Positions 1 through 58,222 are shown, counted from the whole stretch's first letter. The stretch: DNA of 63,999 bases, filler included, from Asterionella formosa (GCA_002256025.1; 10 parts of 10 records of this genome joined end to end with filler, not necessarily neighbours in it); one strand, 5' to 3'. Translations and numbers: made by a program. Notes: generated by a model from the letters alone, not told the origin.

Positions 1-592
1 CAAAGAAAGCAAAACTTGCTTACTATTTTGCTTACTTTTGCTTTGGGGGCCGCCCCTCTAATTGCCCCGGTCATTGTTGTGTTTTGACGTTTCCCTGTTT
101 TGAAGAATAGAATTAGCATAAAACCTACGTCATGAAGTTCGAAGCGGCGATCATACCACAGACGATTTTAATGATTGAATTGATGATGTTTTCAATGTAT
201 TCTTTTTTTTTTCTGCGTCACGTCATCAATTTCAGCAAAATGACCGCAACTTGCACATATGACTAAAATTTATTATGATACCCGGTACATGATCTATTAA
301 TAAATATGATCATACATATATGAGAATATAAATATATGTATCATATAATCCATGTACCGTACCGGTACCTGGTACCAGGTAGTGTAATCTATGTAAAATT
401 GTACTCCGAGTACGTGTTACATACTCAGCCCGCGGGAGCCACGACGAAGCAAAACACATCAAAGCAAGCGGCAAGCAGAACAATCTGCTGTGCTCCCAAA
501 GCAAGCCGTCGTGTATTATTATACCGCGGTCGTTACGAGGCGCGACGATCTGTTCAGTTCTTTTTAAAGTTTTCAATAACCAAAACACAACC

Positions 593-1587
593 ATGACAAT
601 CGTTTACGCCCTGGTATCACGCCAGAAGACAGTTCTGGCAGAATTCACTGCAACATCAGGTGAGAGGGCTTCCAGAATAATTTCTTTACCGTTCATTGCC
701 GCGTCAAATAAGTCCTGATTGCTCTGTTGTGACTCAATTCGCGAACCATGAAGAATCGATTTGTAGCATACTTGGATGGACCCAACGAACTCCTTCGCTG
801 AAAACCACAGTAAATAGTTGCCAGAACGTACTAGACTTCCGTTACTTTCAGGGATGCACGAGAACTTTTCGGTCGTGAGAATGACCTTGAAAATCAATTC
901 CATTGCTTTAACGTCTCCGTTTCCATGACACTTGTTTTGGCTAATTCTCCATATTTCCTCCTTCTGATGGAAGCGACAGGCAATTTTCCTACCGTCACTA
1001 GAGTTTTGCTCTCCAAAATTCCAGTCCAGGATGGTAAAATGACCTATGTGTACGACCAGCATGTCTTTCATTACATTGTAGAATCTGGCATTTGCTACCT
1101 CTGTATGAGTGACGAACTCAACAAACATCGCATCCCGTATGCGTTCTTGAACGACATGAAGGAGCGTTTCATTGCCAGATTTGGAACGGACGAACCTCAA
1201 ACGGCCATTGCCTTTAGTATGAACGAAGAATTTTCCCGCGTTATTTGCGAACGAATGGAATTTTATAATTCAGATGCCGCGGACTTGACGGTCGACAATA
1301 TTGGCGCTGTGAAGTCCCAGATTGAAGATGTCAAGGGAATCATGGTTCAGAATATTGAAAAGGTGTTGGAACGTGGTGAAAAGATTGAATTGCTGGTGGA
1401 CAAGACGGATCGGCTCAATCAGCAGGCCTTCAAATTTGAATCGTCGTCGCGCAATTTGCGACGTTCTATGTACTGGAAGAGAATGCGGTGCTACATTTTT
1501 TCCGGAGTTTTTGGCGTCCTTTTTGTCTACTTTGCCGCATCGTCGCTCTGTGGATTTGACTTTCATCGATGCCATTCCAAAAAATAA
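593..1587 (+). CDS. VAMP7: Longin R-SNARE VAMP7/VAMP71-like; exons 593-659 and 980-1587
   Basis: ATG at 593 gives MTIVYALVSRQKTVLAEFTATSG. A GT..AG intron (660-979) joins in frame to NFPTVTRVLL. Longin domain, R-SNARE motif (VKGIMVQNIEKVLERGEKIELLVDKT) and C-terminal TM segment are present. Confidence 0.93.
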
Positions 1588-4500
1588 CGTGAGTTATATT
1601 CAAGGAAACATTAGGATGACTATATATTATTGAGTAAACAAAAGAATTATAAGAATCGCGAATAAGTCGACAACAACAGCAAGAATCAAACAAGCCGGTA
1701 GTGGTCTAGACTTGGTGATCGCGAACTGANNNNNNNNNNNNNNNNNNNNNNNNNNNNNNNNNNNNNNNNNNNNNNNNNNNNNNNNNNNNNNNNNNNNNNN
1801 NNNNNNNNNNNNNNNNNNNNNNNNNNNNNNNNNNNNNNNNNNNNNNNNNNNNNNNNNNNNNNNNNNNNNNNNNNNNNNNNNNNNNNNNNNNNNNNNNNNN
1901 NNNNNNNNNNNNNNNNNNNNNNNNNNNNNNNNNNNNNNNNNNNNNNNNNNNNNNNNNNNNNNNNNNNNNNNNNNNNNNNNNNNNNNNNNNNNNNNNNNNN
2001 NNNNNNNNNNNNNNNNNNNNNNNNNNNNNNNNNNNNNNNNNNNNNNNNNNNNNNNNNNNNNNNNNNNNNNNNNNNNNNNNNNNNNNNNNNNNNNNNNNNN
2101 NNNNNNNNNNNNNNNNNNNNNNNNNNNNNNNNNNNNNNNNNNNNNNNNNNNNNNNNNNNNNNNNNNNNNNNNNNNNNNNNNNNNNNNNNNNNCCATATCT
2201 GATGAAAGCAGCACAAAGCAATGCCTCCAGTAAACACATGACAGAAGCAAAGGCAGGAAATGTAAGCAAGTTTAACCCAAAATAGGAGCATTTGACAAAG
2301 ATAGAGGGACGCCCACACCACCCTAGTATCGATACACAACTCTACAAGTCGATGGCAAGGATTGATGAGTGGGGATGTCTACAACGTTCCAGATGAACCA
2401 GCCAATTGGAAACAATTCAGCCCACTCAGCCAGGTCAGGCTGTTTGTTGGGTGGGCGAGATCAACACCGCACAACTGCTGGCTAAACAATGACGCACAAA
2501 TCGAATTTCGATGTACAGCATCCAGAGCTTTTCAAACTCGAGCTCATTCTCCACAAGTTCCATGCCCTTAAATTCCCAATAGCTTTAGCTAAGCAGGGGG
2601 TACAGATACACCAAACCCTGGCGAGTGAAAAATGGTGTGAGTGGTAGAACAGGAACAGACCCAGGTACTGTGATGGGATGGTGGAGTTTCTTGATTACTA
2701 CCTACTAACTGTAAAAGGAAAAAGCAAGATGGCCATCACAATCTTTACTGGTGCATATGGAGCTTCACATAACTCAATGCTCACCCGCCAGGGCGAGCAC
2801 ATGTTTTACTACTATCAGGAACACATGATAATGTCTAAGCAGGGAAATATATCTCTGAACCTGCCAAGCAACACAAAGATGGCTGGGTATTAGTGACATG
2901 GGTTACTATTTATAATATTTTTATTACTATTTATAATAGGAGATCAGCAAAAAATCCCAAGGAAGAACAACTATGCTAATGGTGGAATCCAGCAAGGACA
3001 CTGAGTAATCACCCTCTGTACATGCTGTTTGATCTCATGAATAAACTTAACCCACAAAGCAGCCCATCCCTGTTCCCTAATGATCATATGATGGGTTCAA
3101 GACCATATGAATGGGGGATGCTGATACATCAAGGAAACCATGCATCACACAATCGGGTATTCTTCCATGTTCCTGCCACATAAAAAAGTTTCATCCATGT
3201 GAAATCGAAAAGCATGAGACTAACTATGTAAACAAACATACATAATAAACGCCTATGGGGTTTTTGATGACTCAGGGCTAATGGTAACCCCCCCCCCTCC
3301 CCTTAAGATAGATCTATATCGTTAGACAAAGAAGGCTATTGATCGAGACTTTCGTTTCTCTTTCGTTTCTATATTCTTATTGTGAGTTACTAAACTAGTT
3401 TAGGTTGTTCGGTTTGAATAAACAAACGAACTATTGCAGCTGTTCCTTGATTCAAAAGTTGACTTTTCTTCAGCTTGCAAAAAATCGTATTTCACGAAGC
3501 TATTTGGAATTAAAGGGACCATTATTATTGCNNNNNNNNNNNNNNNNNNNNNNNNNNNNNNNNNNNNNNNNNNNNNNNNNNNNNNNNNNNNNNNNNNNNN
3601 NNNNNNNNNNNNNNNNNNNNNNNNNNNNNNNNNNNNNNNNNNNNNNNNNNNNNNNNNNNNNNNNNNNNNNNNNNNNNNNNNNNNNNNNNNNNNNNNNNNN
3701 NNNNNNNNNNNNNNNNNNNNNNNNNNNNNNNNNNNNNNNNNNNNNNNNNNNNNNNNNNNNNNNNNNNNNNNNNNNNNNNNNNNNNNNNNNNNNNNNNNNN
3801 NNNNNNNNNNNNNNNNNNNNNNNNNNNNNNNNNNNNNNNNNNNNNNNNNNNNNNNNNNNNNNNNNNNNNNNNNNNNNNNNNNNNNNNNNNNNNNNNNNNN
3901 NNNNNNNNNNNNNNNNNNNNNNNNNNNNNNNNNNNNNNNNNNNNNNNNNNNNNNNNNNNNNNNNNNNNNNNNNNNNNNNNNNNNNNNNNNNNNNNNNNNN
4001 NNNNNNNNNNNNNNNNNNNNNNNNNNNNNNNNNNNNNNNNNNNNNNNNNNNNNNNNNNNNNNNNNNNNNNNNNNNNNNNNNNNNNNNNNNNNNNNNNNNN
4101 NNNNNNNNNNNNNNNNNNNNNNNNNNNNNNNNNNNNNNNNNNNNNNNNTTGCTTCCATTTTATTGCTGAGGACTATACTATTAGGAGATTTGAATGCTGC
4201 AAAGACATTGTTCATCACAACCTGTAAATAATATTCTTAATGCTTTGGTCCAAATCATGACTTGAGACAATTGAGGAGATTCAGCAAACTCCACTTTTCT
4301 TCTTGCACTGCTAGGTGATTGGCAACCCCGCCCTCCTCCACAGTGCTGCCTGGTGTCTTGAAAGAAGAATGGGATCATGCATTGTTAACCTAGCAATCAA
4401 TGATTGCTAATGCGCATGAAGCAACAGTGCAATTACCGGACTTCCCTCAGATGGATGGATGCACACCATCAGTGGTGTGTGGGATCATGTGCATGCATAC

Positions 4501-4870
4501 GACAGCTATTATTAATGAAATTGACAATAGAGAGCTCGTACAAGAGCGAGAAACGAAACGCGCCAATTTTTCCTCGCTCATACCGGTACATACCGGTACA
4601 TGCATTCTAAAAGAGTGAGCGAAGCAAAATGGGATGATGTCATTTAATGGAAATCACGGACACCTGCAGTCGTTGCTGTTGTAGACAAACAAAGGAATCA
4701 TCTCTTTGGAAATCCCTCAGATCAGCGTTGCATAACAGTGCGGTTCTGCAAACTGCAAGACACGACAGGGGCCTGAAGTGAGAACAAGGGGACAGAACGT
4801 CAACTATTACTTTACCATTCCGTTCACCATCCGTCCCTTTCTTACTTGTTGGTTTTTTGTTTGGACGGCC

Positions 4871-6301
4871 ATGGCTTCTACAACAGACAACATGAAGGGG
4901 TGTGGCTGCCACAGTGGCTTAATAAATGGAAATCTTTCGGAAGAATTTGTCGAAACTCCGACGAAACGAGTCAAATTGACTTTTTCGACCGCGACCGATA
5001 TTATCAACGACGAGCCATCATACACAACAACTGCAATGCCGACGGTGACACCTGCTTCATCACAACAAGGTGAATACACAATTGACTCAGCTGCCCAACA
5101 AATAAATGTTCCTAGTCCCGCGCCATTTCCCACTCCTTTGTCGAAAGAAGAAATAAAAAGGTTGCTCCAATCAGAAGCAGGATATGATTGCGATGCAGAG
5201 ACGGCTACCCCGAAGCGAGCAAACTACTTGACGTGGGATGAATATTTCATGGCTGTTGCCTTTCTAAGTGCCCAGAGATCCAAGGATCCTTACAAACCAG
5301 TCGGTGCTTGTATTGTGGACGAGGCTAACCGTGTGATTGGCATTGGTTACAATGGCTTTCCTCGAGGATGTGACGATGATGCCCTCCCGTGGAATACGGC
5401 CAATGACAACAATTGGTTGCATTCTCCAAGTCCCTACGTGTGTCACGCGGAAGTAAATGCCATTTTAAACAAGTGTAGCGATGCGACGGGTGCACGTCTT
5501 TATGTCCCTCACTTTCCTTGCAACGACTGTGCCAAAGTGATTGTGCAGTCGGGTATCAAGGAAGTGATTTTCATTAATGACCTAGAAACGAACGAGGACA
5601 CGTATAGGGCAAGCCGAATCTTGCTCACCATGGCAGGTGTGGTCATGAGAAAGTATGAGCCAACCATTTGTACGGTAGTTCTAGATTTTTCCAACGCCAT
5701 TGCCAACGTGACAAATGTCATGGCAAACGATGTGGTAACTGCAACACGTCCGAAACAAGCCTGCTTTCGCCAATTGCTTTTGAAAGAAGCCAACTGGGAT
5801 CCAACCCAACACCCTTCTACCAAGCGCAGTGACTACTTGACTTGGGACGACTATTTCATGGCAATGGCATTTCTCTCTGCTCGCCGTTCCAAAGACCCCA
5901 ACACTCAAGTTGGCGCGTGCATTGTCGACAAGTCGAATTGCGTGATAGGATTGGGGTACAATGGATTTCCACGAGGGTGTTCGGACGACCACCTCCCGTG
6001 GGGACGGATCGATGACAAGACGCTTCATAACAAGTATGCGTATGTTTGCCATGCCGAAGTGAACGCAATATTAAACAAGTGTAGTGCCAGTGTCAAGGAT
6101 GCGACACTGTATGTGGCCCTTTTCCCTTGCAATGAATGTGCCAAAGTGATTATCCAATCGGGCATACGAGAGGTGGTGTACATGGCAGACACATATCGTG
6201 ACACTGACATGTGCCGGGCTTCGAGAATAATGTTTCAAATGGCAGGAGTGACGCTACGACAGCACATTCCCAAGCTGACTCAAGTTGTTATTGCGTTTTG
6301 A
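4871..6301 (+). CDS. DCTD: dCMP deaminase with two tandem deaminase domains
   Basis: Two copies of [59 protein letters not shown] in one uninterrupted ORF. First ATG in the ORF is at 4871. Confidence 0.93.
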
Positions 6302-6361
6302 GTGAAACAGTAAACTAGGTTGTTGAATGTATATAAAAGTCTTGCACGTCTACATGATACT

Positions 6362-6461: not shown

Positions 6462-6839
6462 TGCTAAGGATTGTCCTGAAGAAAAGAAAACAAAGGAAAA
6501 GAAAGAAACTGAAATGTTTGTTGGTATTGTTGAAACGATCGAAATCCATGATGAAAAGTCTGATACAGATGATGATTTTGAAATAATTGACTTGACTACA
6601 AACAACAAGACGTTTTTTGACTATGAATATGTTGAAGACACAAAGGTCTACATTACATGCGAAGAAACAGAATATGCATTTATTGGAGTGACGGTTGAAA
6701 TTGTGGATGAAGAGATCAATCAAGCACACCATGCAAGCATCAAAAACAGTGAGAGTAAAATTTGCGCATCAATCGAGGAAAATGAACGTTGGTTAGCTGA
6801 TACAGGCGCAACCAGTCATATTACTATGTGCAATAAGTA

Positions 6840-7440
6840 TAGGAAAAAGATATTTCGTCCCCCTATTTCGATATTTCGTCCCCCTCTTTTTATAAACCCT
6901 TAAACCCTAGCCTACATAGCCTTCATATAAACCATTTTTGCTCGCACACGGAAATCAGTTGGCTTGATGACACTGCCGTGACGGCTGCTACTCATACTAC
7001 ACATGCACATCATTGTGTTCAAATTGACTCTAATGGCCTCAACCAAAGCAGTCAGAGCCTATTGAGGACAATACAGAGGAGGGACTGGACGGCCCTGTAC
7101 AGGCGTTCTACGGCGCTGTAATTCGAAGATACAGAGCTTTTTTGTGCACTTGAATGATCACCCCTCGACCCTCAGTCTACATGATGTTAGCTAAGGCGAG
7201 ATAATTGTGGAGTTCATCATCTTTGCTGGCTTCCATTAAAAGATCAACAGAGGGAAAGCGACGGTACCTCCCAACGATGTTATGTCAACTCAACGTGAAT
7301 CTTTGGGAAGCTAATGCAACAAATGGAATCATCAATGGATCTGATGCTGCTCAGCTCGCAGTTCATTTGGAACAATTTTGTAGTGTGATATTCAGGAATA
7401 TAAAGCGTATAAACTGCAATTGTTGAAAGCACAAAATCGG
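6840..7440. mobile_element. Unclassified insertion replacing the Copia protease-to-integrase linker
   Basis: Copia homology stops after HITMCNKY. The insert starts with GATATTTCGTCCCCCT twice and TAAACCCTTAAACCCTAG. Copia frame resumes near 7470 (KAKAKSVPK). Confidence 0.55.
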
Positions 7441-10304
7441 TTGAACGTTTGTGCACAGATATCCGCTAGCTAAAGGCTAAAGCAAAAAGTGTTCCTAAAA
7501 TCACTATGAGCAAGGCTACTCAACCGGGCAAACGTTTGTGCACAGATATCAGCGGTCCATATAAACAGTCGATTTTAGGAAATGACTATTGGATCCTTGT
7601 TGTTGATGATTACACCGGAAAATCTTGGAGTTTCTTTGTTAAGAAGAAGTCACAGCTTGCTTCAAAGATTGAAGATTTGTTGACTAAACTCAAAACGGCT
7701 GAGTATGTTACCAAGTTTCTCCGTTGTGACAATGCGGGTGAAAACGTCTCAGGTTTGACAAAACTATGCGACAAATTCAATATTCAAATCGAATTTGCGG
7801 CACCCTACACACCACAACAGAATGGAATTGTTGAGTGAAAGTTTGTAACCATTCGTCAACGAGCATGTGCAGCAATGTTTGGTGCAAAATTTAATGATGA
7901 ATTTCAAGGTTTACTTTGGGCAGAGGCCATCAACACCAACACACGAATCACGAACATTGTGGCCACATCTAATGATGTAAAAAGTGCAGATGAGAAGTTT
8001 TTCAATAAGGTTCCAATGATTTATGATCATCTAATGCATTTTGGCAGGATCGGATGGGTGAAAATTGGTGCTAAGAAAAAAAATAAACTCGAAGAAAAGG
8101 CCATTAAATGTGTGATAGTTGGTTATTCTCATGATCATGCTGGAGACACTTACCGAATGTTTAACCCTCAGACAAGAAAGATTTTAAATAGTCGAAACAT
8201 TCGCTGGGCTGATTGGCATGGCCAAACAAGTCCAATCGCAGGTTTGAGGGATTTCAATGTGGAAGGGGACACAGAAGTGGTTGTTATTCCAATTGATGAT
8301 GAAAAGCAGGACGAAGATGTTCTTCCTGTTGTGCTACCTATCCAGCAGGATATTGATTTGGAAACACCTGTTCCAGTTGTGAAACAAACAAGATTTCAGC
8401 TATCCGAAGCAGTGGGGAAGTTAGGTGATGAGATCAACAAAGATGCTTCGAAGAAAGTAAAATTGGAACAAGAATTGAAACGCCTTGATGGTTGGAAAGA
8501 AGTTACTGGCAAACGCAGTGCTCGGCGCAACTTACAACTAGATGACAAGGACAAAGGATCAATTGAAGAAATAGATTATTCTGAAGCGGCCTATCAAGAT
8601 GATGATGAACTATTTCAAAGTGAAGAAGGAGTAGAGAGGTTCTATGCACATTCTACAACGCTTGCTTCCGATCCTGGGGAGCCAAAGCATTACAAGGAGG
8701 CTATTAAAGGAGACAAGAGCAAGCAGTGGACCGTTGCTATTAAAAATGAAATCAACAATTTCTACAAGCGAAATGTTTGGAAAATGGTTCCTCGTGACAA
8801 TCTCAAGGGCAGAAAACCCTTAGGCACACGCTGGGTATTCAAGAAGAAATCTGAGCAGGAAAAAAGTATTCGATACAAAGGACGTATTGTAGTGAAAGGC
8901 TATGTTCAGATCCCAGGACTGGATTTCACTGATTCATTTGCTCCATTTGCAACAGATGCTTCAATGCGTATGATATTCGCTCTCTCGTTATACAAATTGG
9001 ATAAGTCTGAAGAAATACGATGGGTTTGTGAAATCATTGATGTTGAAGCTGCTTTTCTTGAAGGAGACATGGAAGAGCAAATCTATATTGAATGGCCAGA
9101 TGGGGTTTTAGACTTTGGTTTCGAAACACAAGAAACAATGAAAAACAAATGCATTAAGTTGGAGAAGGCCATGTATGGCACAGTTCAAGCAGCGCTACAA
9201 TTCTTCAAGAAGATGGTTCAAAACTTAACCAAAGTTGGATTGAGGCAGAGCAAGGTCGATCCATGTGTATTCTTCATCAAGGAAAACAATGCACTAATCC
9301 TAATAATTGCCACAAATGTCGATGATTGTGCAATTGCTGGAAAGCCAAATGATATTAAATGATTCAAAAATGAAATCAAGAAACACTTCACAATTGAGGA
9401 GCTTGGCCCTTTGAAGAAGCATTTGGGATTGTGGTACAATTGGGGCCAAGATAAAGTGGGACGCTACTTGGAGTCGAGCATGGAGGATTTTGTGCATGTT
9501 ATGCTCCAAGATTATCATGATATTTTTGGAAAGTATCCAAGAGATGCATCAACCCCAGCATTTCCAGGAATTGTTCTCAGAACGAATCCAGACAAAGTGA
9601 TTCTCCATAAAGAATATCGTTCAATGGTTGGAAAATTGTTGTATTTTTTGAAGAAAGTTGGACCAATATGCGCGATCGCATGTCGTGAACTTTCTCAACA
9701 TTTAGAGAATCCTGGTGATGCCCATAGGAGTGCTGTTGAACGTTTGTTAGGTTTCATTGCAACTGATGAAAGGAACAGAAAATTAAAAATGAGACCACCA
9801 CATGAATTACGAATTCAAGACGTGGTAGACAGCTCATTTGGGGACAATCCAGATACAAGGAAATCGACAAGTGCATATTTGGGTACGATTGGTGGTGCAT
9901 CGCTAGTGAATTGGATTTCGAAAGGACAGAAGATTGTTACTGTTTCCAGCACTGAAGCAGAGTATGTGGCTCTATCAGATGGATCAAAGGAAACTACTTT
10001 TATAATGAATCTACTCAATGAAGTTGAATACGTGGAAATGCCCAGTATCATTGCAGAAGACAATACAAGTGCAATTTTTCTATCAAGGAATAAGCAGGTT
10101 GGTTCACGAACTAAGCACATTGATGTGAGATATCATTTCATTCGAGAAAAGTTGAAGGCTGGGGATATTAGAGTTGACTATGTGAATACTTTAAAGAATC
10201 CTGCAGACCTACTTTCAAAGAATGTCATTCAGAAAATTCATGACACTCATGCAACCCACATTATGAATGGGACCATGGATTGTTGGTTTCGAGATCAGGG
10301 AGGG

Positions 10305-11429: not shown

Positions 11430-12597
11430 CCAAAGTAGTGTCTTTACCACTTGTCGTAGAATTCTACGCAACTCATTCCTCCTGCATGCCGAAACCTGTT
11501 CGCATATGTAAAAATAACATTCATTTGCGTGCATGTCGTATGATGTCGCTCGTGTTTGTAATTCTTGACACTTGTCAATCACAGTTAGTACCTGAAATAA
11601 TTTCTCTACCACCTGATGTCGTTGAGTTCTACATGAAATCATCACCATGATGATGCCGGAACTTTTGTCCATCATAAAATATGTTTGTACATATGCCCTT
11701 CGTGATGGTAAACCGGTTTCAGTACAATAGGTACATTTATTGGAAAAACATCGGTGGTACCACTCCACATGGTTCGTTATAATCGTCATGTAGAAGAAGG
11801 TTGAAGTTTAGTCCAATGTATGTTTGATACCAGTATTTAACATAGATTAATGACCCCGAGGGTCTTATTCAGCTAAGCAAAATTCCGGACATGATATGAG
11901 AATTTTTCCCTTTCCACTCCTACTGACAAAATGTTGGTACGATAATAATACTTCCTGACTCAAATCGTCCTTTATTTTTGTGATCGCTGTTTGATGGATA
12001 TTAGTCCATTCCCAGCGGGATTTTGTGGAAGTTATTGCACTACGTCTGATCCACATATCGCGTTAAAAATTTATCATACCAATAAAGCGTCGTAGCTGTC
12101 TACGTGTGGCTGGTCTTGCGATATTTTGAATTGCCTCGATTTGATTAGTCATTGGTTGAACACCCTGACGAGTTATCCAAAAACCAAGATGCTCAATTTC
12201 GATAGCACAGAATTTAGACTTGTCTGCATTTATCCGAAGGCCCGCTTCGGATATTGTTTGCATTACAATTCGTACATGCTGTAGGTGATCGTGAAACGAT
12301 CCCGAGGTAATACCCAGAAGGTCGTCTAAGTACGTACGTACCCAGGCCTGTCATTAAGTTTGACATTTTTTCTTGAAAAATGTCCGGGGCACAGTTGATT
12401 CCCATTGGTAATCGGTTATATCTATACTTGCCCCAAGGGAAAATTATAGCACTTAAGTTTTGAGCCTCTTTATCTAAACGAATTGCATAGTATCCCATGT
12501 TAAGGTCTAATGCCGTGGCATATGTTAACCCTTGTTCAAGCTCTTGGATGAAATCGGATATTTTTGGGATAGGAAGCGGTTTTTGTTTGATATTTTT
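11430..12597 (-). mobile_element. Ty3/Gypsy pol remnant (RT, RNase H start, integrase zinc-finger region), frameshifted and deleted
   Basis: ATALDLNMGYY, PWGKYRYNRLPMG, YLDD at 12321-12332, RRQLRRFIGMINF, VEWYH. Confidence 0.9.
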
Positions 12598-12912
12598 GCA
12601 TGAAGCCGGCGAAAGTCCGAAACTACGGTACGTGGACACTACCTTATTTTGGCTTAGTAATGTATGTAATCCCCCCCCCCCATATGGTACCAGGGTGGTA
12701 CATGCAAAAAATTCAACCCCCAGTGCAACCTTTTAAGACCGTAGTGAAAGCTAGTGTACTAGCAGTCAACTAGCACTGTGTACAAAGGTAAACTACAAAA
12801 ACCCCTGGTACCNNNNNNNNNNNNNNNNNNNNNNNNNNNNNNNNNNNNNNNNNNNNTTAATTAATTAANNNNNNNNNNNNNNNNNNNNNNNNNNNNNNNN
12901 NNNNNNNNNNNN

Positions 12913-13078
12913 CAAATGAATTATTTGAAACATCAACTAATTCAGTCTCGCGTTCAAAATTCATTGTGAAAACTTCACATGAAACAGTTAAAACTTCACA
13001 TGAAACCGTTAAAACTTCACATGAAACCGTTAAAAGTAATCTTTTTACGTGAAGAGTGGCATTAATGCATGTGAAGTA
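12913..13078. repeat. Second copy of the 188-bp monomer, abutting the protease motif
   Basis: Near-identical to 13827-13972, with three rather than two internal 21-bp units (AAAACTTCACATGAAAC(A/C)GTT). Confidence 0.9.
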
Positions 13079-13783
13079 GCTTGATTGATTATCCAATAGT
13101 ATCCAGTCATGCATCTCAGATGCTTGGTAAAATTGTAGTTTCATATGAGCTCCAGTCCATCCAAATATATTGACATTTGCTTGTTGTGAAGCTTGTGATG
13201 ACGGCGGGTTGTTGGAATTCACAGAGGTAACTGTACTTGTGTCCGATGTAGTAGCCCGTGCCTGTGCATGGCTTTTTTGGGCCTTGTTGATTGCCCATTC
13301 CTCTTTGGGTTTATTCTTGTCTCGGCACGAAGGGGATTTGTGTCCTGCTCTACCACAGCAGTAACATTTTCCCTCTAACTGTGCAAACAATAAGTTCCCA
13401 TGTTCATCTTCCTTCCCTGCATCCTTTTGTTCTCTGCCTTTATTAGGATCTCCTGGTTTCTTTTGACTGTTGGGTTTATTTGTTACATCAAACCGATGGT
13501 TGCTGAGAACATTATTTGATTCGGTGATGGTCTTCGGGTATTGGTCGTTGCCGAGTGATTGTTGAGTGTTCAGCCCGGTCATAATTGATCCATATTTGGC
13601 TTTATCCGCATTATCGAGGTATAAATAGGCCATAAATTGACTGAAAGCTTGTTCGCGAAATTTATCTTGTAGCTTGATGTTGGTCTTGCTGTATCTGTCC
13701 ATGGCTTCAACGAACTTGGTGAGGATAATGGGTCCTCCCATGTGTGACTTGAGCATATCTTGTGCCACACGAGATCTCTTGGT

Positions 13784-14040
13784 ACCACATAATTAACACT
13801 CGTACGTAGACGAAATTTCGAAAAGTCAAATGAATTATTTGAAACATCAACTAATTCAGTCTCGCGTTCAAAATTCATTGTGAAAACTTCACATGAAACA
13901 GTTAAAACTTCACATGAAACCATTAAAAGTAATCTCTTTTACGTGAAGAGTGGCATTAATGCATGTGAAGTACCACATAATTAACACTCATACGTAGACG
14001 AAATTTCGAAAAGTGGCGTATTTCGCGGCTTAGATGTGGT
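13784..14040. mobile_element. 257-bp insertion in gag: one 188-bp monomer plus a partial second copy
   Basis: Removing 13784-14040 restores the gag frame (QDYT|KRSRVAQD). Ends are ACCACAT / ATGTGGT. Confidence 0.8.
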
Positions 14041-15042: not shown

Positions 15043-15671
15043 ATGCTCTGCCATTGTTTTGGATGAATAGACTGGCCTTTATGATTGGTTAGTGGACAGG
15101 GCATTGGTGTGATCCTCCTATGGCTACAGATTTTTCATCTTTCAAGGAAATAGTATGCCATTGCGACAGCAGTAAGCAATGTTCATTCCTACTGAACAAG
15201 AACAAGAAAGCTTCTTCTTTGTGGGGTCACTGTCTTGATGCGCTGTATCCAGTGATTTAGCTGTGATAATAACAACAATGAGTAACACTGAATCCGTTTG
15301 ACATAATCAAATCACACAGTACAAAATATACCGGTATATATATTCAAAATAGATTCTACATCGCTTTACGTAGTAGGTATATACTATAATCTATACTCCG
15401 ATCGACGACTATGTATCATACTTATGTACGACCCTGCGGCTTGGCAACTATTTGAAAGTGCACGCACTCAAGGAGTGGTACGCGTATGTAGGTCCAATGA
15501 TGATCATGTACTAGTACCCGTACATTATGAAAATAATACCAACTGCCAGTACCAGGTAGTCTACTGTCTACTGTCCACCCAAGAAAATGTTTCGAGGTAC
15601 CTGGTACCAATGTGGCCGGCATGGGTCTGAAAGACCTTGCAAACCGGGCCAATCAAACGGAGGAAAAGTTC

Positions 15672-15734
15672 GTGTTTGATTACCGGTAGTCTGACTCATT
15701 GTTTTTTAACCCTACCTTGAGCTAGGGGCTCAAA
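15672..15734 (+). repeat. Dispersed repeat, reverse-complement homolog of 61399-61460; probably a DNA-transposon terminal region
   Basis: Direct alignment of TGTTTGATTA..GTCTGACTCA.TTGTTTTTTAACCCTACCT.GAGCTA..GGGG.TCAAA. Confidence 0.85.
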
Positions 15735-18250: not shown

Positions 18251-19525
18251 AATCCTTGCTCATATCATCGTTATCGCTACTTCTTCCATAAGAAAGAAGA
18301 GGAATGAAAATGGACAAAAAACTGAGAGAGTTTCTGGTGGACAAAGTTGTGCAACATTATTTGGTCTGTTGCAAATGTTACTCTGTTTGATTGTCACATC
18401 ATCGGCCGGGAATACTGTGCACAGCATTTCTCTCAGCTCCAGCAGGCAACTGCCTTAGCAATGCAATCTACCTGTGAGGTGCTGCAAGACAAAAAATGAA
18501 GTAATCAAGACAAATGGAGGACAAGGATCACGATTTCGGAGGTGTGTGACAATGTGGTGTTACTATGTTTTATTATTTTTACTACGGTATGGTGAAGTTT
18601 CATTCTTCACTGTGCTAGCTTTGCTTACCAAGAATATCCTGGTACCAGTACCACCGGTCGTTTTAAGCTGCAAGAAACAAGGCAGGCAGCAAATAAAAAA
18701 CAGCTCCTTACCAGGTACCATTGTGCTGGTACCCTCCTACCTGGGAGTTGCGTGAGAAAGACAGTTTTCATAATGAGGAAAACTGAGATAAATTCTCACT
18801 ACATACGGTACCTGGTAGAGTATGTGTACCTGATGGCATCTACAAAATGTTATGAGAGGGATGATACCATCTCCATCGATGCAGCACCAGTGGTTGTCAT
18901 GATTTAGCGTGGCCGGCGCCAGCTGATCAAATGTTCTGTGTAAAGCACGGTACACCTGGTACACGCCAGACGATACCATCAGGCACGGAAGAACATTTCC
19001 TCATTGTTTGCATCAAGATATCATCCTGTTGTCTCAACACTTCTCTCCCATTAGATGACATCCTCGTAGTCTACTCACAACACAACACCACAGGTAGTAT
19101 GCCAGCAACAACTCCGCCATCCACCGTGGTCACTTCCACTTCCAGTTCCAGCAAGCGCCCTTTTTGTCCTCCAAATCTTTCCTCGGAGAAATGTGCGAGT
19201 AACAAGAAACGAAGGACAGCTGCCAAACCCAAGGTGAGTTCTCACAATGCATGTCACACAAACGAAAAGGACNNNNNNNNNNNNNNNNNNNNNNNNNNNN
19301 NNNNNNNNNNNNNNNNTTAATTAATTAANNNNNNNNNNNNNNNNNNNNNNNNNNNNNNNNNNNNNNNNNNNNAATGAATGAATAATGAACATAACACCGG
19401 TACATAGCAATGTTCGAAGAAACCATGTACAGTATTAGGCAATTATCCCATACAAATTACTTATAGGTACGGCCTGGGACCTTTCTTTTCTGATCGAAAC
19501 ATCGATTACAAGTTCACTTAACAAA

Positions 19526-33453: not shown

Positions 33454-34292
33454 TTCTTGTTATGGACTCAACAGAATGGTCTAAACCTCAAGACAATGTC
33501 ACATCATACAAATGATCATTTGTTTTGTTTGGTCGTGAGCTTGGTGCTTGACCTTGGCACCCTGAGGTTTCCATAAAGTATACGGTGCAATGAAGTTTAG
33601 TATAAAATAATGTATTAGGTAGACTCGTATGTCTTAAAAATCTCTATGGGCCCTATGAATGTGATTTGATATCTGATGCACGCTTTTTGTTTGTTTGCTC
33701 CCAAAGTTGTCGATGTCGGCGTTTCTTGGACATTTTCGCCCCGTAGACACTTAAGCCACTAATCGATCTTTTTAGCCGGTATCTGGCAATTGTAATACCG
33801 GTATCCACAGATCAGATCGCTGATTAGTTTCGTATATATACCAAACAGCTGTTTGGCCACTGCTGCACGATGGTACACACCTTAACTTGGCCCGTTGTTG
33901 ATTTCATGAGGATCCTAGATTGTCTCTCGCTTCATTCCGAAGGTTTAGTGGATGCGACGGTAAACACCACGCCACAACTATCAAAGGTAATTCAAATAAC
34001 CTGATTCGCGCTGGTTGCTGATTCCTTTTTCAGTCGAAGAGTTTGCATCTATCAATATCCAGTATATTTGTCATTTCATTAGCTTTGCTTTAACCCTACT
34101 GCGTATAGTACACATGCAATAACATAGAACTTTTCTTAAATGTGGTATACTCTATACTACTATTTTTGTTCTCATAACCTGCTTTCTACTACTCGTGCCA
34201 CTACATAAATCGCCCCTGACTCCTCGTTTTCGCAATTTTCCGTGGCCTTGATGACATCTCTGTTATTGATGTGTTCCACTTCTATTGCTTTA

Positions 34293-35269: not shown

Positions 35270-36714
35270 TTTGGAGGTTTGGGGTGTGAGTGGGGGTGGG
35301 TGTATGGAATGGATATAGAAAGACGAGGATTCAACAATTGATTTATTTCTTTGATAAAAAATATGTAGGTATGTTTATTACCCACCCACAAAGGGTAATA
35401 AAAGTGATGGCGTGCAGAAGGCGAGAGAAGTCGATAATAATACTGGTAAACATATATGTGGATATCAGTATAACAATACAAAGTAATTGCAGTGGTACCA
35501 GGTACTACGGCAGTCTGCTGGTGTATCAGAAAACCATATCTCATACGCCGAGTACCTGTACATTCGTGGGATACTTGATACCCATAGCACCAGGTACCAA
35601 AGGGTAACCTGTTTCAAGTGCGTCTCCTTGATGCATCAACCGCCGCACACTTGGAAAGGTGCGTACATGTGTATGTACTCGTACTAGTTCTAAACATGCT
35701 CTTAGTACCGTTAAAATGGTTGGTACTGGTACCAGGGTACTGTTGCAACGGCACTGCATGATACTGAACGGTACCGTAGTCGTCATTAGTGGTTGATGGG
35801 TAGGGGGGGGTGGGGGGTTTATCATGTGGTGGTAAAAAGCGATGGATAGTAATAAAGAAAGCGAAATGAAATTAGCGTGTGCGTATGGCTGTAGTTAGTA
35901 TGCACACATCTTGCAAACCCTACCACCACCCAAGGAAGAATTTTTTGCCAGGTGGCGTTTTGATGATTGCTGCTGCTTTGAGAACCGGTACAACCCTGGT
36001 AAGCAAATTTCAGGATGACTCCGGCACTACTACCGGGTATGTATCGGTATCCTACAGGTACTCCCTTGTCCCCTGACGAAGAGATTACGCATGTCGTGAC
36101 AATGATGCTGGTAACATCATAAGGCTACCGGTAGGTGATGGACAGACAACAGTATTCAGCACCACCACCGAATGTGTGCAGCTTCCAAACATGTTTTTAA
36201 TTATATCGTAGCAAAGACTTAAAGCAAAGCAATCGGTAGCCACCTGCCTGTTGTGACTTATCAACATACATACTCGTAGTATAGTACCTACCAGTACCCT
36301 GGTACCTGGTAGCAACAATGCCTAGGCAAGCAAGCAAGGAACCAAAAGACAAGTTGAGTCAAACGACGGTTTCTACTTATTTAAAAAAAGAAGAAGCAAC
36401 ATGTTAAAAAAGCGTGGCCACATGTATTCATACGAAATGTCATAGAGTATTCATACATAGAGTTCACAGTACCTGGTAGACTATATGAAATACCATGGAT
36501 ATGTATACCAGCATTTCCTTTCTCGTTCGTTTCAATATTCACCTGTGATACATACCGGTGGTTAATATAAAATAATTTACTATTTTTATAATATAAGTAA
36601 ATAATGCATATATGTGATATATACCTGTATTATCGATAATATATCATCCATAAAAAGTATACCGGTATATCGTTGCAACAAAGTGAAGGAAAAGTAACCA
36701 GCACCTTTCCCACC

Positions 36715-37416
36715 ATGACTATTGTTGCCAAGGAAGATACAAGAAACAAATCGTGGAGTGAAGGTTCCATTGGTGCCAAACTGTTGGGGAAATTGGGCTG
36801 GACAGAAGGTCAAGGATTGGGTCGGAACAAGCAAGGAACGTCACATGCCTTGGTAGCAATCCGTCGTGCCGATGGTGTTGGACTTGGTGCTACTTCCAAT
36901 GATCAAGATACGACTGGATGGAAAGATACGAATGATAACTTTGCTTCCGTCCTGAGGAATTTACAATCTGAGCATGCAACAGCAACCAGCAGCAACAACA
37001 AGAGCAAGAGTAGTAGTAAAAAGGACAAGAAGCCAAAATTAGTATTGGCCAAGAATAGAGTCTTGGCAGGACATGCAAAGAAAATGAGAGCAGCCAAGGA
37101 CTTGTCGAATAAAACAAATGAAGAAATGGCATGTATTTTTGGTGGAGCCGTACATCAAGGGACAACGAAGAAACCCAAAATGTCAAAGAAACGATCTCGT
37201 GAGGACGACAACAACAGTGAGGAGAAGAAACCAAGCGGAAACAATGCAAAATGTGTTAGTACCGCAGTTACCAGTGAAGCGTTATTACTGGATGATGATG
37301 CCTGCAACGACAACGACACACTAACAATGACCACGAAACAAAGTGTAAATGACAATGTCGCCAATAAGAAAGTAAGTAAGAAGCGAAAAAAGGAAAAGAA
37401 ACGGACCAAAGAGTAG
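36715..37416 (+). CDS. PINX1: G-patch protein, PinX1/Pxr1(Gno1)-like
   Basis: DTRNKSWS..GAKLLGKLGWTEGQGLGRNKQG..GLGA..W..F..VL..L; Lys-rich tail. Confidence 0.8.
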   Translation: MTIVAKEDTRNKSWSEGSIGAKLLGKLGWTEGQGLGRNKQGTSHALVAIRRADGVGLGATSNDQDTTGWKDTNDNFASVLRNLQSEHATATSSNNKSKSSSKKDKKPKLVLAKNRVLAGHAKKMRAAKDLSNKTNEEMACIFGGAVHQGTTKKPKMSKKRSREDDNNSEEKKPSGNNAKCVSTAVTSEALLLDDDACNDNDTLTMTTKQSVNDNVANKKVSKKRKKEKKRTKE

Positions 37417-37480
37417 AACTACAATGTGTCACATGTGAAACAAGGGAAGGAACTTTTGTGAACTAGTGATGCAATAAAAT

Positions 37481-38497
37481 TTATTTTTTTAATGGTGCCA
37501 ATCCTAATTTAGCTCGTTGCTCATTCCAATATTCTTCTGAATTTTCGTCCACTTTCATTGAGTCACGTTCCGGAATAAGAATTGTCCGATCGTTTTTGGA
37601 TGGTTTGAATAGCATTCCATAAGTTCGATTGCTTGATTTTTTGGATTGCTTTGCTATTATCGGTAGCTCTTCTTCACGACACCGTTTGTTGCTGGGAACA
37701 CTAGCAATTGAAGTCGTATTCCCCGGGTAGGTGCTTCGATCCTGCTGATTTGGATCGTGAATCTCCCCCTTATCGTGATGTGAATTCCCTTGTCGGGGCG
37801 AGCGAGATTTATTCCATTGCTGCTGTTCCTCTAGAAGTGCTCGTTTTCGTTCAAGCCGTTGTTCCCAAACCACCTTGGCAGCAAGGCTCCCATGGTCAAC
37901 TTTCAACTTCAGATAGTCGTTCAACGATTGTCCCGGTTCCAACACAATGGGTGATTGATAGGGGTCTAAGTAGCCTTCGTCTTCCAATGTCTTTCGTGCA
38001 GTCAATCGCGGCAATGAAATGCCACAGACACGGGATTGCGTCAATAAGGAATGTATGAACTCATCCACATGAATCAATTTCCATTCATACATGTCTCGGT
38101 ATCGCAACTTTCGATAATCCACCAACCATGGCTCCAGGGATTTGTACACATCTGCCGGTCTCCGGGCCGAGAGTCGCACATATAAGGCGGCCAACACTCG
38201 GACATGTTTGAACTCTTCATTTTGTAAAAACTCTTCCAGAAGAGATGGGTCTGGTTGAATTTGCAGTAATTTCAATGTCAGTGATAGGAACTTTGTTGGC
38301 TGACTGTTCCCACCAAAGGAGGCTCCGATGCATTTAAGTTTGGATGCCTTTTCTAATACCCCCACTACTGACAATCCAAAACATTCTTCTTTCCAGTATC
38401 GAGAATCGTAAATCTTTTGCCGAGTGATGTATTCCATGAGTGATTGTGGGTCTGTTCCGTGAACGGCATTGGCCAACGGATCTGTCACGTTTGCCAT
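37481..38497 (-). CDS. PRP38: Pre-mRNA splicing factor PRP38A
   Basis: MANVTDPLANAVHGTDPQSLMEYITRQKIYDSRYWKEECFGL..LKLLQIQPD..DYRKLR..HVDEFI. Confidence 0.95.
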   Translation of the reverse strand: MANVTDPLANAVHGTDPQSLMEYITRQKIYDSRYWKEECFGLSVVGVLEKASKLKCIGASFGGNSQPTKFLSLTLKLLQIQPDPSLLEEFLQNEEFKHVRVLAALYVRLSARRPADVYKSLEPWLVDYRKLRYRDMYEWKLIHVDEFIHSLLTQSRVCGISLPRLTARKTLEDEGYLDPYQSPIVLEPGQSLNDYLKLKVDHGSLAAKVVWEQRLERKRALLEEQQQWNKSRSPRQGNSHHDKGEIHDPNQQDRSTYPGNTTSIASVPSNKRCREEELPIIAKQSKKSSNRTYGMLFKPSKNDRTILIPERDSMKVDENSEEYWNEQRAKLGLAPLKK

Positions 38498-38910
38498 GGC
38501 TATTTCGCAGTTATCGTTTGCTTTTGCTTAGTCTGTTGTCGAATTTTGTCTTCGAAAGACTTGATCAATCCAATTGATGATACTACGCCTGAACAAGCAT
38601 CCATGGAAAGGAAGCGAAATGCAGATAACAGCAGTGCATGCAGTGCATNNNNNNNNNNNNNNNNNNNNNNNNNNNNNNNNNNNNNNNNNNNNTTAATTAA
38701 TTAANNNNNNNNNNNNNNNNNNNNNNNNNNNNNNNNNNNNNNNNNNNNTTCACGTCGATCGTTTCGCCCGCCTTGATACAGTATTGCTCAAATCATCTGC
38801 ACCACTTTCCATAAGTTTCGAAATTTCAACCCGCTTCCAAGTATCGCCGCTATCGAGAGAGTCCCACAGCTTCGATGTATTTATCTTTTCTTACAGAAAA
38901 GGGATTCACC

Positions 38911-43255: not shown

Positions 43256-43979
43256 TTTGGTTCGAAGAATCTCACCTCTGACGACACAACATCAACGAAC
43301 GCTCGAATAAAAAGAACAGCGAAGGAGTCCAGTATAGTTCGTATTTATAAACGTCGTTTTGTCAACTCTTCTATCGTACGAGATGAGGATTACAGTTGCA
43401 GTTGATATACCGAATAATTAGACAGAGAGTAAGAGAAGAAGCCTCCACAAAAGCCGAATGGGACGGCAAGCAACGGTGTATGAATTGTGTTTTAAGCTGC
43501 GCACTGGTTGGGCTCGCTCTATTGTTCTGATAACAAACAACGAGATGCATACCGGTATTACAAGAAGAACTGAAATGTTCATTGATGCTGCCTTTATTCA
43601 CATTTTATTATTTCATGAGAGGCATATTACCTTATTCCAGCGCAAAACACTGCGGCGTGTGATTGTAAAAACAAACAACCCTAAGCAAATTTATGAATAT
43701 ATTAAGACCTGTCTGTCTACATTCTTAATTTGATATATTGGTATCGTAGTTACATAGGTGTTTTTATTGATACATGAATATGATGATATGAACATTCTGC
43801 CTTTGGGTATGCAGTACATGTAAAACTGTGTGCCGGTTGTAAGCAACGGTGCTTTTGTCGACTACCGGGTAAATGCTTTAATCAGCACTGAATGGGTTTT
43901 GTGCACAGCATCCAAGTCTGCGAGTCCAGGAGGCGACGAGTTCAAGTGATAATGTTGTAGCATGTCATCGCTCTCCGAA

Positions 43980-51391: not shown

Positions 51392-53505
51392 GATTCATTC
51401 CTACTTTAGAATCAAATTCGATACGGATTCTTCAATCGGACGATTTAGCTTTTCCGTCTGTTTCTTGATGCTTGTCCTCCGCTCAATTACAGAGATACAT
51501 GCAGCCTTTAAAGCTCAAGGCAGAAAGATTGTTCAATAGTTGTATCAAAATGGTCGGCAACTTCNNNNNNNNNNNNNNNNNNNNNNNNNNNNNNNNNNNN
51601 NNNNNNNNTTAATTAATTAANNNNNNNNNNNNNNNNNNNNNNNNNNNNNNNNNNNNNNNNNNNNAGTCTAAACTCAAAAGGGCAATTACTGCTGGACAGC
51701 CCTGCCTAGGAGCTTATTACAAGCGCCATGCAATTTCTTTCTCAACACCTCTGGCACCCTTTACCCCCACCTCTCCCTCTCTTCCTCCCCAGCATCTTTC
51801 CCTCCCTTCTACTGATAACCACGCAAAGCAAGAAGCGCTTGTGTCACCACTCCGACCTTCCACATACACTCTCTCCATCCCAGAACTTGCTGGCCACAAA
51901 AAAATTCTCAAACTTCATCTGGAAATCACTAGCTTCACCATGTTTGTATTGATGAACAACAGTTTGATCATTTTCTCAAATACCGGACGATTGTCCGGTG
52001 GAGGAACATGGTACACAGAATCTTGCAAGTTGTGGTAAAATTGCCGAAATGACGATTTGGACATCTCGGATATGCACGCCTGTAGATCCAACACAAAAAA
52101 TGTAATCTGGCTAGCTCGGAAAACAGTTATCTTTCATTCATGGCATGATCGTTTTGAACTTTTAGAATTTGATTTGGCAGAAACTATTTTAGGGTCAAAC
52201 TCATTCCCCCAATCCAAAAAATTGGGGGGTTTTACTGGAGAGCTAGATTCCATCGGGGTCAGCCAGATGCGGCCACAGGAGAGGGATCAAAGAACATGAT
52301 AGTCGACCCCCACCAATGAGTGCACATGTCCGGGAATACATATAGCGGTACATGCACCTACGGTTATACGTTTAATATGAATGCTCTCTGCCTTCCGGTA
52401 CATACTGTGTATAATTACAATCGCTCATGAATCGAACAAACATGAGAAATTTCCCATTACCATGATTAAATGATTATTAATTTTCGATTTTGTACAACTG
52501 CTTAACACTACTATTATTAGTTACTTAGATAGAAAACACGTGTTGCTAGCAAGTAGTGAAAGAAACAAACACGTAGCTTTGATATTCATTGCGAAATAGC
52601 TAACATTGAAAATCGGCAGAAGCTACATGGCGTTCGACCGCAATGACAATATCTCCATGATTTCTTGACAATATCTCCATGATTTCTTGCTGGATCAATA
52701 CCCAAGTAGCTAGTTCGCACATAACCGTTGTATATCAAGTAGACATATTCTATAATATCAGAAGCTGAAAACAACTATTGGTTTGCTTATAATTCGTGAT
52801 TTATCTGTTAACAATAGGCATATCATCATTGTCATCATGTAACCGGTACCAAACCAGCAAACATCATGTTCCTATAATATACATGCTTGTACCCCTGGTA
52901 CCACCTAAAAACTGAGAGTCATACAAACTTTCAGTTTTGTACTGATAGTCATAACAAAACGGGGTAATCACAAGGTTTGAGACGAATATTTGTAATATTA
53001 TAAATCTGTATTAGACAAAGTTCTTCCTGTGCATATAAGTATCAGCATTGTTCATACTTGAACACTGCAATCTCGTACCAGTTCTTTAGTTATAGTAGCC
53101 CAAAATTGGCTGTCGACGGTTTTTGGTCCAAATCAGTTTTACCCCATTGAGCCTGCATGACTTTTTCAACACATAGGAGAAGCTGAAGCTATATAAATAA
53201 TAAGCTTCTTTCAAGACTTTTCCGCATCATTACTATGGCATGTTTTCGCCATTGCAATTAAGTTGTGCACCATAATAACTTGTTTATTTAGAGTTGTTTA
53301 AGTGCTGGTGCGCCAATCAATAAATATTATAACCTAGTGGTACCTGGTACTGGCATGATAGACTACTAGTAAACCAGCGCTGCGGCTGGTATGCATGACA
53401 TAAAAACAAGCCTACAAAACAATCCAACTTTTAAGTCTCATAATATACAATTACTTGCAGAGTCATCGTTGAGACACTACAGTAATCATGTTGGCAGACC
53501 AAGGA

Positions 53506-56889: not shown

Positions 56890-58017
56890 TTTAATGATTA
56901 TCGTGGTCCTTGCCCGGTACATCCTGAAGGTGCACATACTTGGGGCAATTGTTTCCAGAATCCTCGTACTCAAGGTGGTCGAGCAGGTCGCATGGCTGGT
57001 CGTCATAATGGACGAGGCCGTTCCAGTATCGGTAGACTAGGACATTTTGGTGGTCGTGGAGGCGGTTCACATAGCAATCCTATGGAAAGCTACAATAATG
57101 ACACTGCTAACCCTGTGTCTGTTCCACATGCTCGTATGTTAAATACATGGGGTCGTAATACTCATCCATCCGGTTGGGTTACCGTGCCACGTGCCGATTC
57201 TACCGAGAATACATCTGCCCAGGAAATTTCAGTGGTCACGAACCCTCCTGCTGGTCAGATAGTGACTTTTGTTCCTACTACACAACAGCAGATTGCTGAT
57301 CGCCATCACAGAGGTGGTATGTGCGATAATAACGATGCTATTTATAATGACTCGTTGAGTATATCTCACGTTAGTCATCACCAGAATAATATTGTTTACT
57401 TACAGGTTGAATACACTATGGATACCGCTGTTCCTGTAATGCGGGATATGTATAACTGTATTGATGGACATGATGTTCCACATACATTATCAGAGCCCAA
57501 TTCCGGTTTCCTGTTTTACTTCTAAGGATATATTAACATCAATTGATTTGATTCCGATTTCCCTTTTAGCGCCTAGATGGGTGGATAATATACCGATACA
57601 TAAAATACTGCGAGTATTATTCGATAGTGGAGGATCCTTATCCTTAATACATGAACGGGTTATGCCTCAAGGTATTTCTTTGTCTGACGAGACTTCCCAA
57701 TTAATACATAATACCATAGCTGTTACTTATTTATCTCATGCCAGTGTCATGCTATATGACCTGATTTTACCAGAATTTAATCGATCCGCTCATCTATGCA
57801 CATTGGAACTAGTCCATTTGTCTGGTTACCTATCCATCCACAAGCTTTTGAAGAAATGAAGGCATTGTTAGTTGCAGATACACTCATGCGTTATCCTGAC
57901 CATAATCTTCCTTTTCATATCTTTACTGATGCCTCTGATTATCAATTAGGGTCGGTCATTATGCAAAATGATCTCCCAGTTGCTTATTATTCTCGCAAAT
58001 TATCTGCCTCTCAAAAG
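56890..58017 (+). mobile_element. Ty3/Gypsy remnant: gag knuckle, protease, RT deleted, RNase H start
   Basis: [64 protein letters not shown]. Confidence 0.88.
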
Positions 58018-58222
58018 NNNNNNNNNNNNNNNNNNNNNNNNNNNNNNNNNNNNNNNNNNNNTTAATTAATTAANNNNNNNNNNNNNNNNNNNNNNNNNNN
58101 NNNNNNNNNNNNNNNNNAATGCATCGCTCGTCTTTGGTCTCATCCCGATCAGGCGAAGCACTATCGTACTGTATAGATCTCATCGTTTCCCATTCTACCC
58201 GGTACCATCTCTCTGTCATCTC

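Follow-up and report, generated by a model that had tools for sequence, protein, structure and literature searches.

Non-coding DNA of the bloom-forming freshwater diatom Asterionella formosa (GCA_002256025.1) is packed with short palindromic words of the type TA-CC(W)GG-TA. We read them, with a probability of about one half, as micro-insertions at TA, that is, as scars of a cut-and-paste transposon of the IS630/Tc1/mariner kind. The window, by which we mean the whole stretch of 63,999 nucleotides analysed, joins ten pieces of ~6.36 kb separated by N44-TTAATTAATTAA-N44 spacers and contains three further N gaps. The motif family itself is a real, strong and unusual feature. Defining its strict members as TAC{2,4}W?G{2,4}TA, we found 31 of them, 23 of which have one of two exact forms, TACCGGTA or TACCWGGTA. 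Exact matches to TACCGGTA numbered 12, against a mean of 0.26 (largest value 2) in 100 dinucleotide shuffles, and those to TACCWGGTA 11, against a shuffled mean of 0.18. Under an order-2 Markov background, TACCGGTA also ranked first in enrichment among all 8-mers of the window (12 vs 0.37), and its extensions led the lists of enriched 7-mers and 9-mers. As in a transposon footprint, a duplicated TA bounds the core on both sides: this holds for 12 of the 99 CCGG and 11 of the 77 CCWGG occurrences of the whole window, where chance predicts about 0.1-0.2 such sites per form in non-coding DNA. Enrichment over background, which the first-pass annotation of this DNA had proposed as a check, was thus present in both the shuffle and the Markov tests. 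The family also occurs in most contigs, as had been claimed, with strict members in seven of the ten pieces and none in pieces 2, 4 and 8 (the end of piece 2 is cut at ...CCCCTGGTACC). All variants listed at that stage (TACCCGGTA, TACCGGGTA, TACCCTGGTA, TACCAGGGTA, TACCCCTGGTA, TACCGTA and TACGGTA) were recovered, and 27 of the 28 listed positions carry a family member; the remaining one, 18829, was wrong, its true copy lying at 18809.

The distribution of these words follows gene starts. Non-coding DNA was sorted by its adjoining genes into 5' upstream, 3' and other classes. Twenty-eight strict copies lie in 21.8 kb of DNA outside open reading frames (ORFs) versus three in 39.7 kb of ORF-like DNA, and these three (32725, 36660 and 58196) are all upstream of real start codons; true exons contain no strict copy, in agreement with the earlier observation that intact exons are free of them. 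The 16 upstream regions (7.3 kb) hold 26 strict and 14 loose members (3.56 strict copies per kb), the nine 3' regions (3.2 kb) a single strict copy, at 33796, and no loose one (0.32 per kb), and the 11.4 kb of transposon-linked, satellite or unassigned DNA four strict and three loose members (0.35 per kb). By length, the 5' excess is significant against both the 3' regions (p = 8e-4) and the other non-coding DNA (p = 1e-7), while TA dinucleotide density is similar across all three classes. The description of the family as intergenic therefore holds in that the copies are non-coding but not in that they fill all intergenic DNA; because the 5' class holds a tenfold density, it is better called promoter-proximal. 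Eight of the 16 upstream regions carry a strict copy, and the empty ones are mostly shorter than 400 nt and cut by piece ends. Distances from copy to start codon range from 55 to ~710 nt, with about half of the copies at 220-320 nt. The bodies of the Copia, gypsy-type and Plavaka-like transposons of the window are without strict copies.

The anatomy of the units is what most suggests insertion. Their cores differ in length: in TACC-x-GGTA sequences, x is absent in 12 cases, one nucleotide in 15 (11 A/T and 4 C/G), two in 2 and three in 2. The longer cores correspond to CCWGG or CCGG with an extra C or G and were probably made by run-length slippage, since a relative described below differs by one such base at 36032. 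Cores one base shorter are also enriched (TACCAGTA/TACTGGTA, 6 vs 0.61 expected; TACAGGTA/TACCTGTA, 4 vs 0.61; TACCGTA/TACGGTA, 5 vs 1.26). With fillers of 0-3 nt and shorter cores enriched 4- to 10-fold, the family displays the spectrum of junction variants expected of footprints, and this variation in core length fits that of repair junctions. In addition, neighbouring units nearly always share the exact same TA (355-381, 18804-18817, 26743-26756, 32720-32750, 35724-39 and 36289-36311), forming stacks of two to six units with centre-to-centre steps of 5-7 nt; protein sites of 10-11 nt would therefore lie too close to one another for joint occupancy. A chaining test that asked whether a motif flank meets another TA within 7 nt (true of 36 of 62 flanks, versus a background of 0.586; p = 0.59) was uninformative because TA is too common in this DNA.

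Two classes of units can be distinguished by their outward flanks, which are T 13, C 7, G 3 and A 1 for CCGG cores (n = 24) and C 15, G 6, A 1 and T 0 for CCWGG cores (n = 22; Fisher p = 3e-5 for the difference). The classes can be written as A-TACCGGTA-T and G-TACCWGGTA-C/G, and their perfect longer forms are ATACCGGTAT (five copies), GTACCWGGTAC (four) and GTACCWGGTAG (six), a pattern that fits two elements of different target preference. They also differ in their relatives. One-mismatch relatives of TACCGGTA occupy 22 sites versus ~4 expected, with changes at all eight positions and a peak at the central CpG, as for neutral decay, whereas TACCWGGTA is nearly all-or-none (11 perfect copies, and five with one mismatch outside the centre versus ~3.4 expected), unlike a degenerate binding site. 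Other TA-bounded words are enriched in the non-coding DNA, such as TAGACTA/TAGTCTA (9 vs 2.3) and TACTACTA (7 vs 0.57). In eight motif copies, G(T/A)C comes next and produces GGTAG(T/A)C (at 15555, 15685, 26740, 26970, 32299, 32747, 36475 and 43860), and words of this type may be a further class of short cores.

From these features we infer an insertion-excision cycle, the kind of element behind it and its targeting of promoters. Entry of the element would duplicate the TA, its exit would leave two or three terminal bases (CC... or ...GG) at each broken end, and end joining would seal the broken ends as TA-CCGG-TA or TA-CC(A/T)GG-TA. Two sources may have been at work, an older one that left CCGG at A-TA-T sites and a second one that left CCWGG at G-TA-C/G sites. 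The CCWGG scar would recreate G-TA-C sites, so that new hits would pile onto old ones and build GGTACC-rich stacks. Insertion would also have to be strongly biased to open DNA just upstream of genes. Other cut-and-paste transposons target open promoter DNA and, because such targeting occurs elsewhere, the promoter bias is compatible with scars, although here it must be assumed.

We compared this DNA with that of relatives over one piece (32291-38648), using metagenome contigs from four runs; matching DNA came from freshwater and lake metagenomes and algal samples, and the comparison reached relatives up to ~4-7% diverged. Over 35886-37216, a contig from run X13 differs by 55 substitutions and 16 gap letters, which corresponds to ~4% divergence overall and, judging from the rows listed, roughly 7% in the promoter part. 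Seven listed indels explain 15 of the 16 gap letters, six of them being small slippage events outside the motifs and one a single-base loss at 36032. Hence this stretch, with its nine strict and loose units, has neither lost nor gained a unit. Among the changes listed, those inside units of the X13 contig are CCGGG to CCGG at 36032 and CCTGG to CCCGG (T>C) at 36474, both of which alter the centre of the core only and spare the TACC/GGTA arms. In run X2, CCG is changed to CCA (G>A) at 32724.

The sole direct hint of insertion came from an X2 contig homologous to 32419-32440, which reads ...GATGAAG, then TACCGGTACCTGGT, and then continues as the window does from 32432 (AGTTG...). At the position of this block the window has only an A so that, in an alignment made by eye, a block of two units appears to be present in one copy and absent from the other. 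The observation comes from a single contig with 30 letters visible, at a site where the window reads AA and not TA, and the block may be a difference between paralogues, given that the segment around it is multi-copy. This segment of ~64 nt (32401-32464) reaches a summed depth of 35-52 in metagenome contigs versus ~5-7 on either side, and the homology of many contigs stops at both of its borders. The segment sits in a tract of repeated CAAGATTC-like words and may represent either a dispersed repeat of small size or a module of the promoter. Runs X2 and X17 have depth holes over parts of the compared stretch. In the promoter at 35.4-36.7 kb, all four loose ends of run X6 contigs are at most 1 nt away from a motif-cluster TA (35723, 36043, 36288 and 36311), and at least one of the four is merely a diverged allele with a small deletion beside the cluster. 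An inverted 10-nt match noticed by eye in the loose end at 36288 was too short to count. A metagenome scan with the G-patch gene returned one locus, with 44% protein identity and 40 nt of upstream DNA, too little for a promoter comparison.

Several observations weigh against the scar reading. The window contains no TA-flanked inverted-repeat element, whether with the CC(W)GG-type ends sought for an intact donor or with any other ends, and no Tc1/mariner or pogo transposase domain was detected among the 58 window ORFs scanned. In the piece compared with relatives there was no clean case of an empty TA allele facing a TA-x-TA allele, the X2 site included. All nine strict and loose units were retained, without turnover, in a relative ~4-7% diverged, and the very active element postulated at first finds no backing in this 1.3 kb promoter stretch, over which no unit was gained or lost. 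The roughly tenfold restriction to 5' regions despite equal TA density is not predicted by random insertion at TA; footprints would be expected in any tolerant non-coding DNA with TA, which is not what we found, so that targeting of open promoters is required. The uniformity of the words is a real difficulty for scars, nearly three quarters of the strict copies (23/31) having one of two exact forms. In addition, a lone GGTACC between CTGG/CCAG-like arms, at 14676 (CTGG-TA-CCCCAG), 14956, 50541 and 52845, is the inverse of the motif arrangement, which a simple scar model does not predict. Finally, TACCGGTA is identical to a published oomycete promoter motif, M94. The TA bounds, CC-GG cores, stacks, variant cores and the X2 block speak for a TA-targeting element, but the window yielded no donor, and the piece compared no clean empty TA. 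We therefore regard the scar mechanism as the best single reading, not as a demonstrated one.

Repeats offered no comparison of sites with and without a unit. The window repeats (a 92-nt and a ~195-nt tandem array and a 102-nt duplicate at 12913/13827) have no motif unit inside, and no copy of the window Copia element, which would have allowed a comparison of TA with TA-x-TA, was found in viral_contigs. Matches to the stacked motifs in the same dataset amounted to seven loci with no further motif enrichment, and look like chance or coding matches.

The cis-element that the first-pass annotation had named as the competing scenario accounts about as well for the tenfold 5' restriction and for an oomycete motif of identical sequence. 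Tentatively, ATACCGGTAT and GTACCWGGTAC may be selected palindromic sites for homodimers, perhaps of MYB-related proteins like PsMyb37, with no transposon involved. Over-representation upstream of genes and a positional tie to the start codon are as expected of transcription-factor sites, 26 of the 31 strict copies lying upstream within ~710 nt of a start, and the retention of all units in a relative with ~7% promoter divergence, where the visible changes spare the TACC/GGTA arms, also suits binding sites. In Phytophthora infestans promoters, M94 (TACCGGTA) is over-represented in germinated-cyst (p = 1.2e-4) and zoospore (p = 0.0078) gene sets (Roy et al. 2013, PMC3597505), and Table S1 of that study lists it as conserved in P. 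ramorum but not in P. sojae, with positional bias. The same source gives two similar motifs, M93 (TACATGTA, with 4150 promoter hits) and M4 ([ACG]TAC[ACT]GTA), and reports M93 and M94 as over-represented upstream of the P. infestans effector families RXLR, elicitins and PcF. TACATGTA has been found upstream of 12,070 Phytophthora genes, in a study that weighed its origin as a Tc1 footprint and discarded the idea because the word is conserved and abundant (Seidl et al. 2012, PMC3520976). Yeast one-hybrid and gel-shift assays in a 2024 paper (PMC11134190) show binding of the MYB-related PsMyb37 to TACATGTA, and knockout of this factor lowers effector expression. Binding sites, however, are expected to have a fixed geometry, and in the diatom the half-sites are 0 to 3 nt apart, spacings of 0 and 1 nt being similarly frequent. 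Forms with damaged arms, such as TACCGTA and TACCAGTA, are enriched too, the TA-sharing stacks (two to six units) would not allow simultaneous binding, and the near all-or-none behaviour of TACCWGGTA is not that of a degenerate site. Moreover, TACATGTA is common and TACCGGTA minor in oomycetes, whereas TACATGTA shows no enrichment in the diatom, with 2 copies across the classed non-coding regions, an opposite preference under which one conserved factor is not expected. Our literature search yielded no paper that describes these words in diatoms or that deals with transposon footprints of diatoms.

Insertional anatomy and promoter bias would both be covered if scars had formed in open promoters and some had later been adopted as binding sites, in the diatom as for TAC(W)GTA, TACATGTA and TACCGGTA in oomycetes, a combination that we consider doubtful and whose weight is counted within the footprint and binding-site readings and not as a third share. 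RXLR, elicitin and PcF effector families sit in transposon-rich DNA. This agrees with the over-representation of M93 and M94 upstream of them; M4, M93 and M94, as published, all consist of TA, a C...G core of 3-4 nt and TA, and one published oomycete example, acatgTACATGTA (PITG_00972, PMC3520976), is stacked. Within this combination, binding and function in the diatom, like insertion in oomycetes, would be extended from one lineage to the other by analogy. It seems unlikely, yet conceivable, that a whole class of stramenopile promoter motifs began as TA-site scars, self-amplifying by recreating their target, which MYB-related factors would then have come to read. Very unlikely, in our opinion, is another mutational process local to promoters, such as slippage or expansion of GGTACC-like hexamers or error-prone repair of programmed breaks. 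GGTACC is indeed concentrated outside ORFs (23 copies vs 6 in ORF-like DNA), the length of C and G runs varies between relatives (36032), and the lone GGTACC hexamers at 14676, 14956 and 50541, flanked by CTGG and CCAG arms but lacking outer TAs, are not predicted by pure TA-x-TA scars. However, hexamer slippage yields only a 6-nt period and not the equally common 7-nt CCWGG step, and five isolated copies of ATACCGGTAT lack any GGTACC, for which reason we rejected the GTAC core or GGTACC hexamer as the basic unit. To our knowledge, no break-repair process adds CCGG or CCWGG. The small probability that remains beyond scars, binding sites and other mutational processes was left unallocated.

The individual sites, listed here in the order of the window, illustrate these features. 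Upstream of the VAMP7-like gene, TACCCGGTA (279-287) lies ~314 nt before the start codon (593) and is followed by a stack of four TA-sharing units, TA-CCG-TA-CCGG-TA-CCTGG-TA-CCAGG-TA (355-381). Two TACCGGTA copies with CA between them (4581-4598) precede the dCMP deaminase start (4871) by ~280 nt. The kinase promoter carries TACCGGTA within the 10-mer ATACCGGTAT (15329-15336); farther along come TACTAGTA and TACCCGTA, loose members with a common TA (15509-15522), TACCAGGTA followed by GTC (15550-15558), TACCTGGTA with G...C flanks (15598-15606) and TACCGGTA followed by GTC (15681-15688), 147 nt upstream of the kinase start (15828). A tract at 18641-18733 contains CCTGG-TA-CCAG-TA-CC... and TA-CCAGG-TA-CCATTGTGCTGG-TA-CCC, and is followed by TACGGTA and TACCTGGTA with a common TA (18804-18817, the copy mislisted earlier). 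In unassigned non-coding DNA, TACCTGTA and TACCGGTA share a TA (26743-26756) and a further TACCGGTA (26889-26896) adjoins the 92-nt tandem repeat. Farther downstream we found TACCTGGTA followed by GTC (32294-32302), TACCGGTA within ATACCGGTAT (32492-32499) and the six-unit chain TA-CCG-TA-CCCCTGG-TA-G-TA-GCTGG-TA-CGG-TA (32720-32750), ~270 nt upstream of the start of a secreted protein (33004). The sole strict copy of a 3'-3' convergent intergenic region is TACCGGTA in ATACCGGTAT at 33796-33803.

The divergent GrpE/G-patch promoter is the richest in units. It contains TACCAGGTA (35496-35504), TACTGGTA and TACCAGGGTA with a common TA (35724-35739), just before which (35723) metagenome contig homology ends, TACCGGGTA (36031-36039), one base shorter in the diverged relative, TACCGGTA (36126-36133), and the stack TA-CCAG-TA-CCCTGG-TA-CCTGG-TA (36289-36311), where contig homology ends at 36288 and 36311. 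These are followed by TACCTGGTA (36470-36478), whose central base (36474) is C in the diverged relative, and TACCGGTA within TATACCGGTATAT (36660-36667), which precedes the G-patch start (36715) by 55 nt. The centre of this promoter is occupied by a G-rich tract (GGGTAGGGGGGGGTGGGGGG, 35795-35822). Beyond the promoter, TACCGGTA (43550-43557) is located upstream of the peroxin-3 start (43255, minus strand) at a distance of 295 nt, and the remaining sites are TACCGGGTA (43863-43871), TACCCCTGGTA (52890-52900), TACCTGGTA (53341-53349) and TACCCGGTA (58196-58204), the last one 62 nt upstream of a start codon (58258).

The genes of the window are eukaryotic and nearly without introns. They encode a longin SNARE (VAMP7-like), a double dCMP deaminase, a kinase, a SET-domain protein, an apyrase, GrpE, a G-patch protein, PRP38, an ankyrin protein, peroxin-3, a DDHD lipase and an Ost-alpha-like transporter. 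The deaminase ORF (4736-6298) comprises two tandem dCMP/cytidine deaminase domains, recognised by Pfam as two stretches, and its two halves share 73-80% identity over short DNA blocks. The transposon content consists of a Copia-type retroelement with integrase, SH3-like and RVT_2 domains, a gypsy-type reverse transcriptase fragment with a zinc-knuckle gag-like ORF, and a Plavaka-like transposase ORF (6463-10304, 12217-13792 and 28896-29558). The tandem arrays are made of 92-nt units (~5-6 copies, 26900-27440) and 192-198-nt units (~5 copies, 62973-63883). Telomere-repeat-like words (TAACCCTA/TAGGGTTA) occur four times versus 0.52 expected in the non-coding DNA of the window and may act as a promoter element of the telobox type. 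No match was obtained when the window was scanned for Rfam families and tRNAs.

If the words are scars, they would form a countable genomic record of thousands of transposon visits to promoters, and a single mutational process would write the commonest short word of the regulatory DNA; it would then have to be asked whether the abundant palindromes of oomycete effector promoters, now taken for binding sites, had a similar origin. As binding sites, the words would probably constitute the most widespread promoter element of this diatom, with a sequence common to oomycetes, for which no diatom factor is known.

Known excision footprints of Tc1/mariner elements are TAC(A/T)GTA for Sleeping Beauty, TA-CA-TG-TA for Tc1, and a TA, three end bases and a second TA for mariner. 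The Tc1 footprint taCATGta goes back to Eide and Anderson 1988, as cited by Seidl et al. (PMC3520976). The diatom words resemble these footprints in their duplicated TA on both sides and in their C...G core of end bases, which is 2-5 nt long and palindromic or W-centred. In contrast, the diatom core is CC(W)GG and not CA..TG, no donor is known, and the words are far denser (3.6 per kb upstream of genes), confined tenfold to 5' regions, very uniform and heavily stacked. Excisions of mariner-type and other DNA transposons in rice, as catalogued in PMC4423477, leave fixed scars, which makes a genome-wide count of them feasible. Only 8 of 94 of the rice excisions reported there preserve a clean duplicated target, most of them having deletions (mean 18 bp) or fillers (mean 13 bp), so that the rice scars are heterogeneous whereas the diatom words are stereotyped. 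With the oomycete motifs M94, M93 and M4, the diatom family has in common an identical 8-mer, a stramenopile host, over-representation in promoters, positional bias and palindromy, as well as TA-bounded C...G cores of different length (3-4 nt in the published oomycete motifs). In the Phytophthora data of these reports, TACCGGTA occurs at 0.03-0.22 per kb and TACATGTA is dominant, whereas TACCGGTA reaches ~0.5 per kb in the non-ORF DNA of the diatom; the TACCWGGTA 9-mer and its stacks are found in the diatom and are not among the oomycete motifs that these reports describe, in which binding is demonstrated for TACATGTA only. The oomycete parallel thus cuts both ways, with CATG there and CC(W)GG here, as if each lineage displayed the ends of its own elements.

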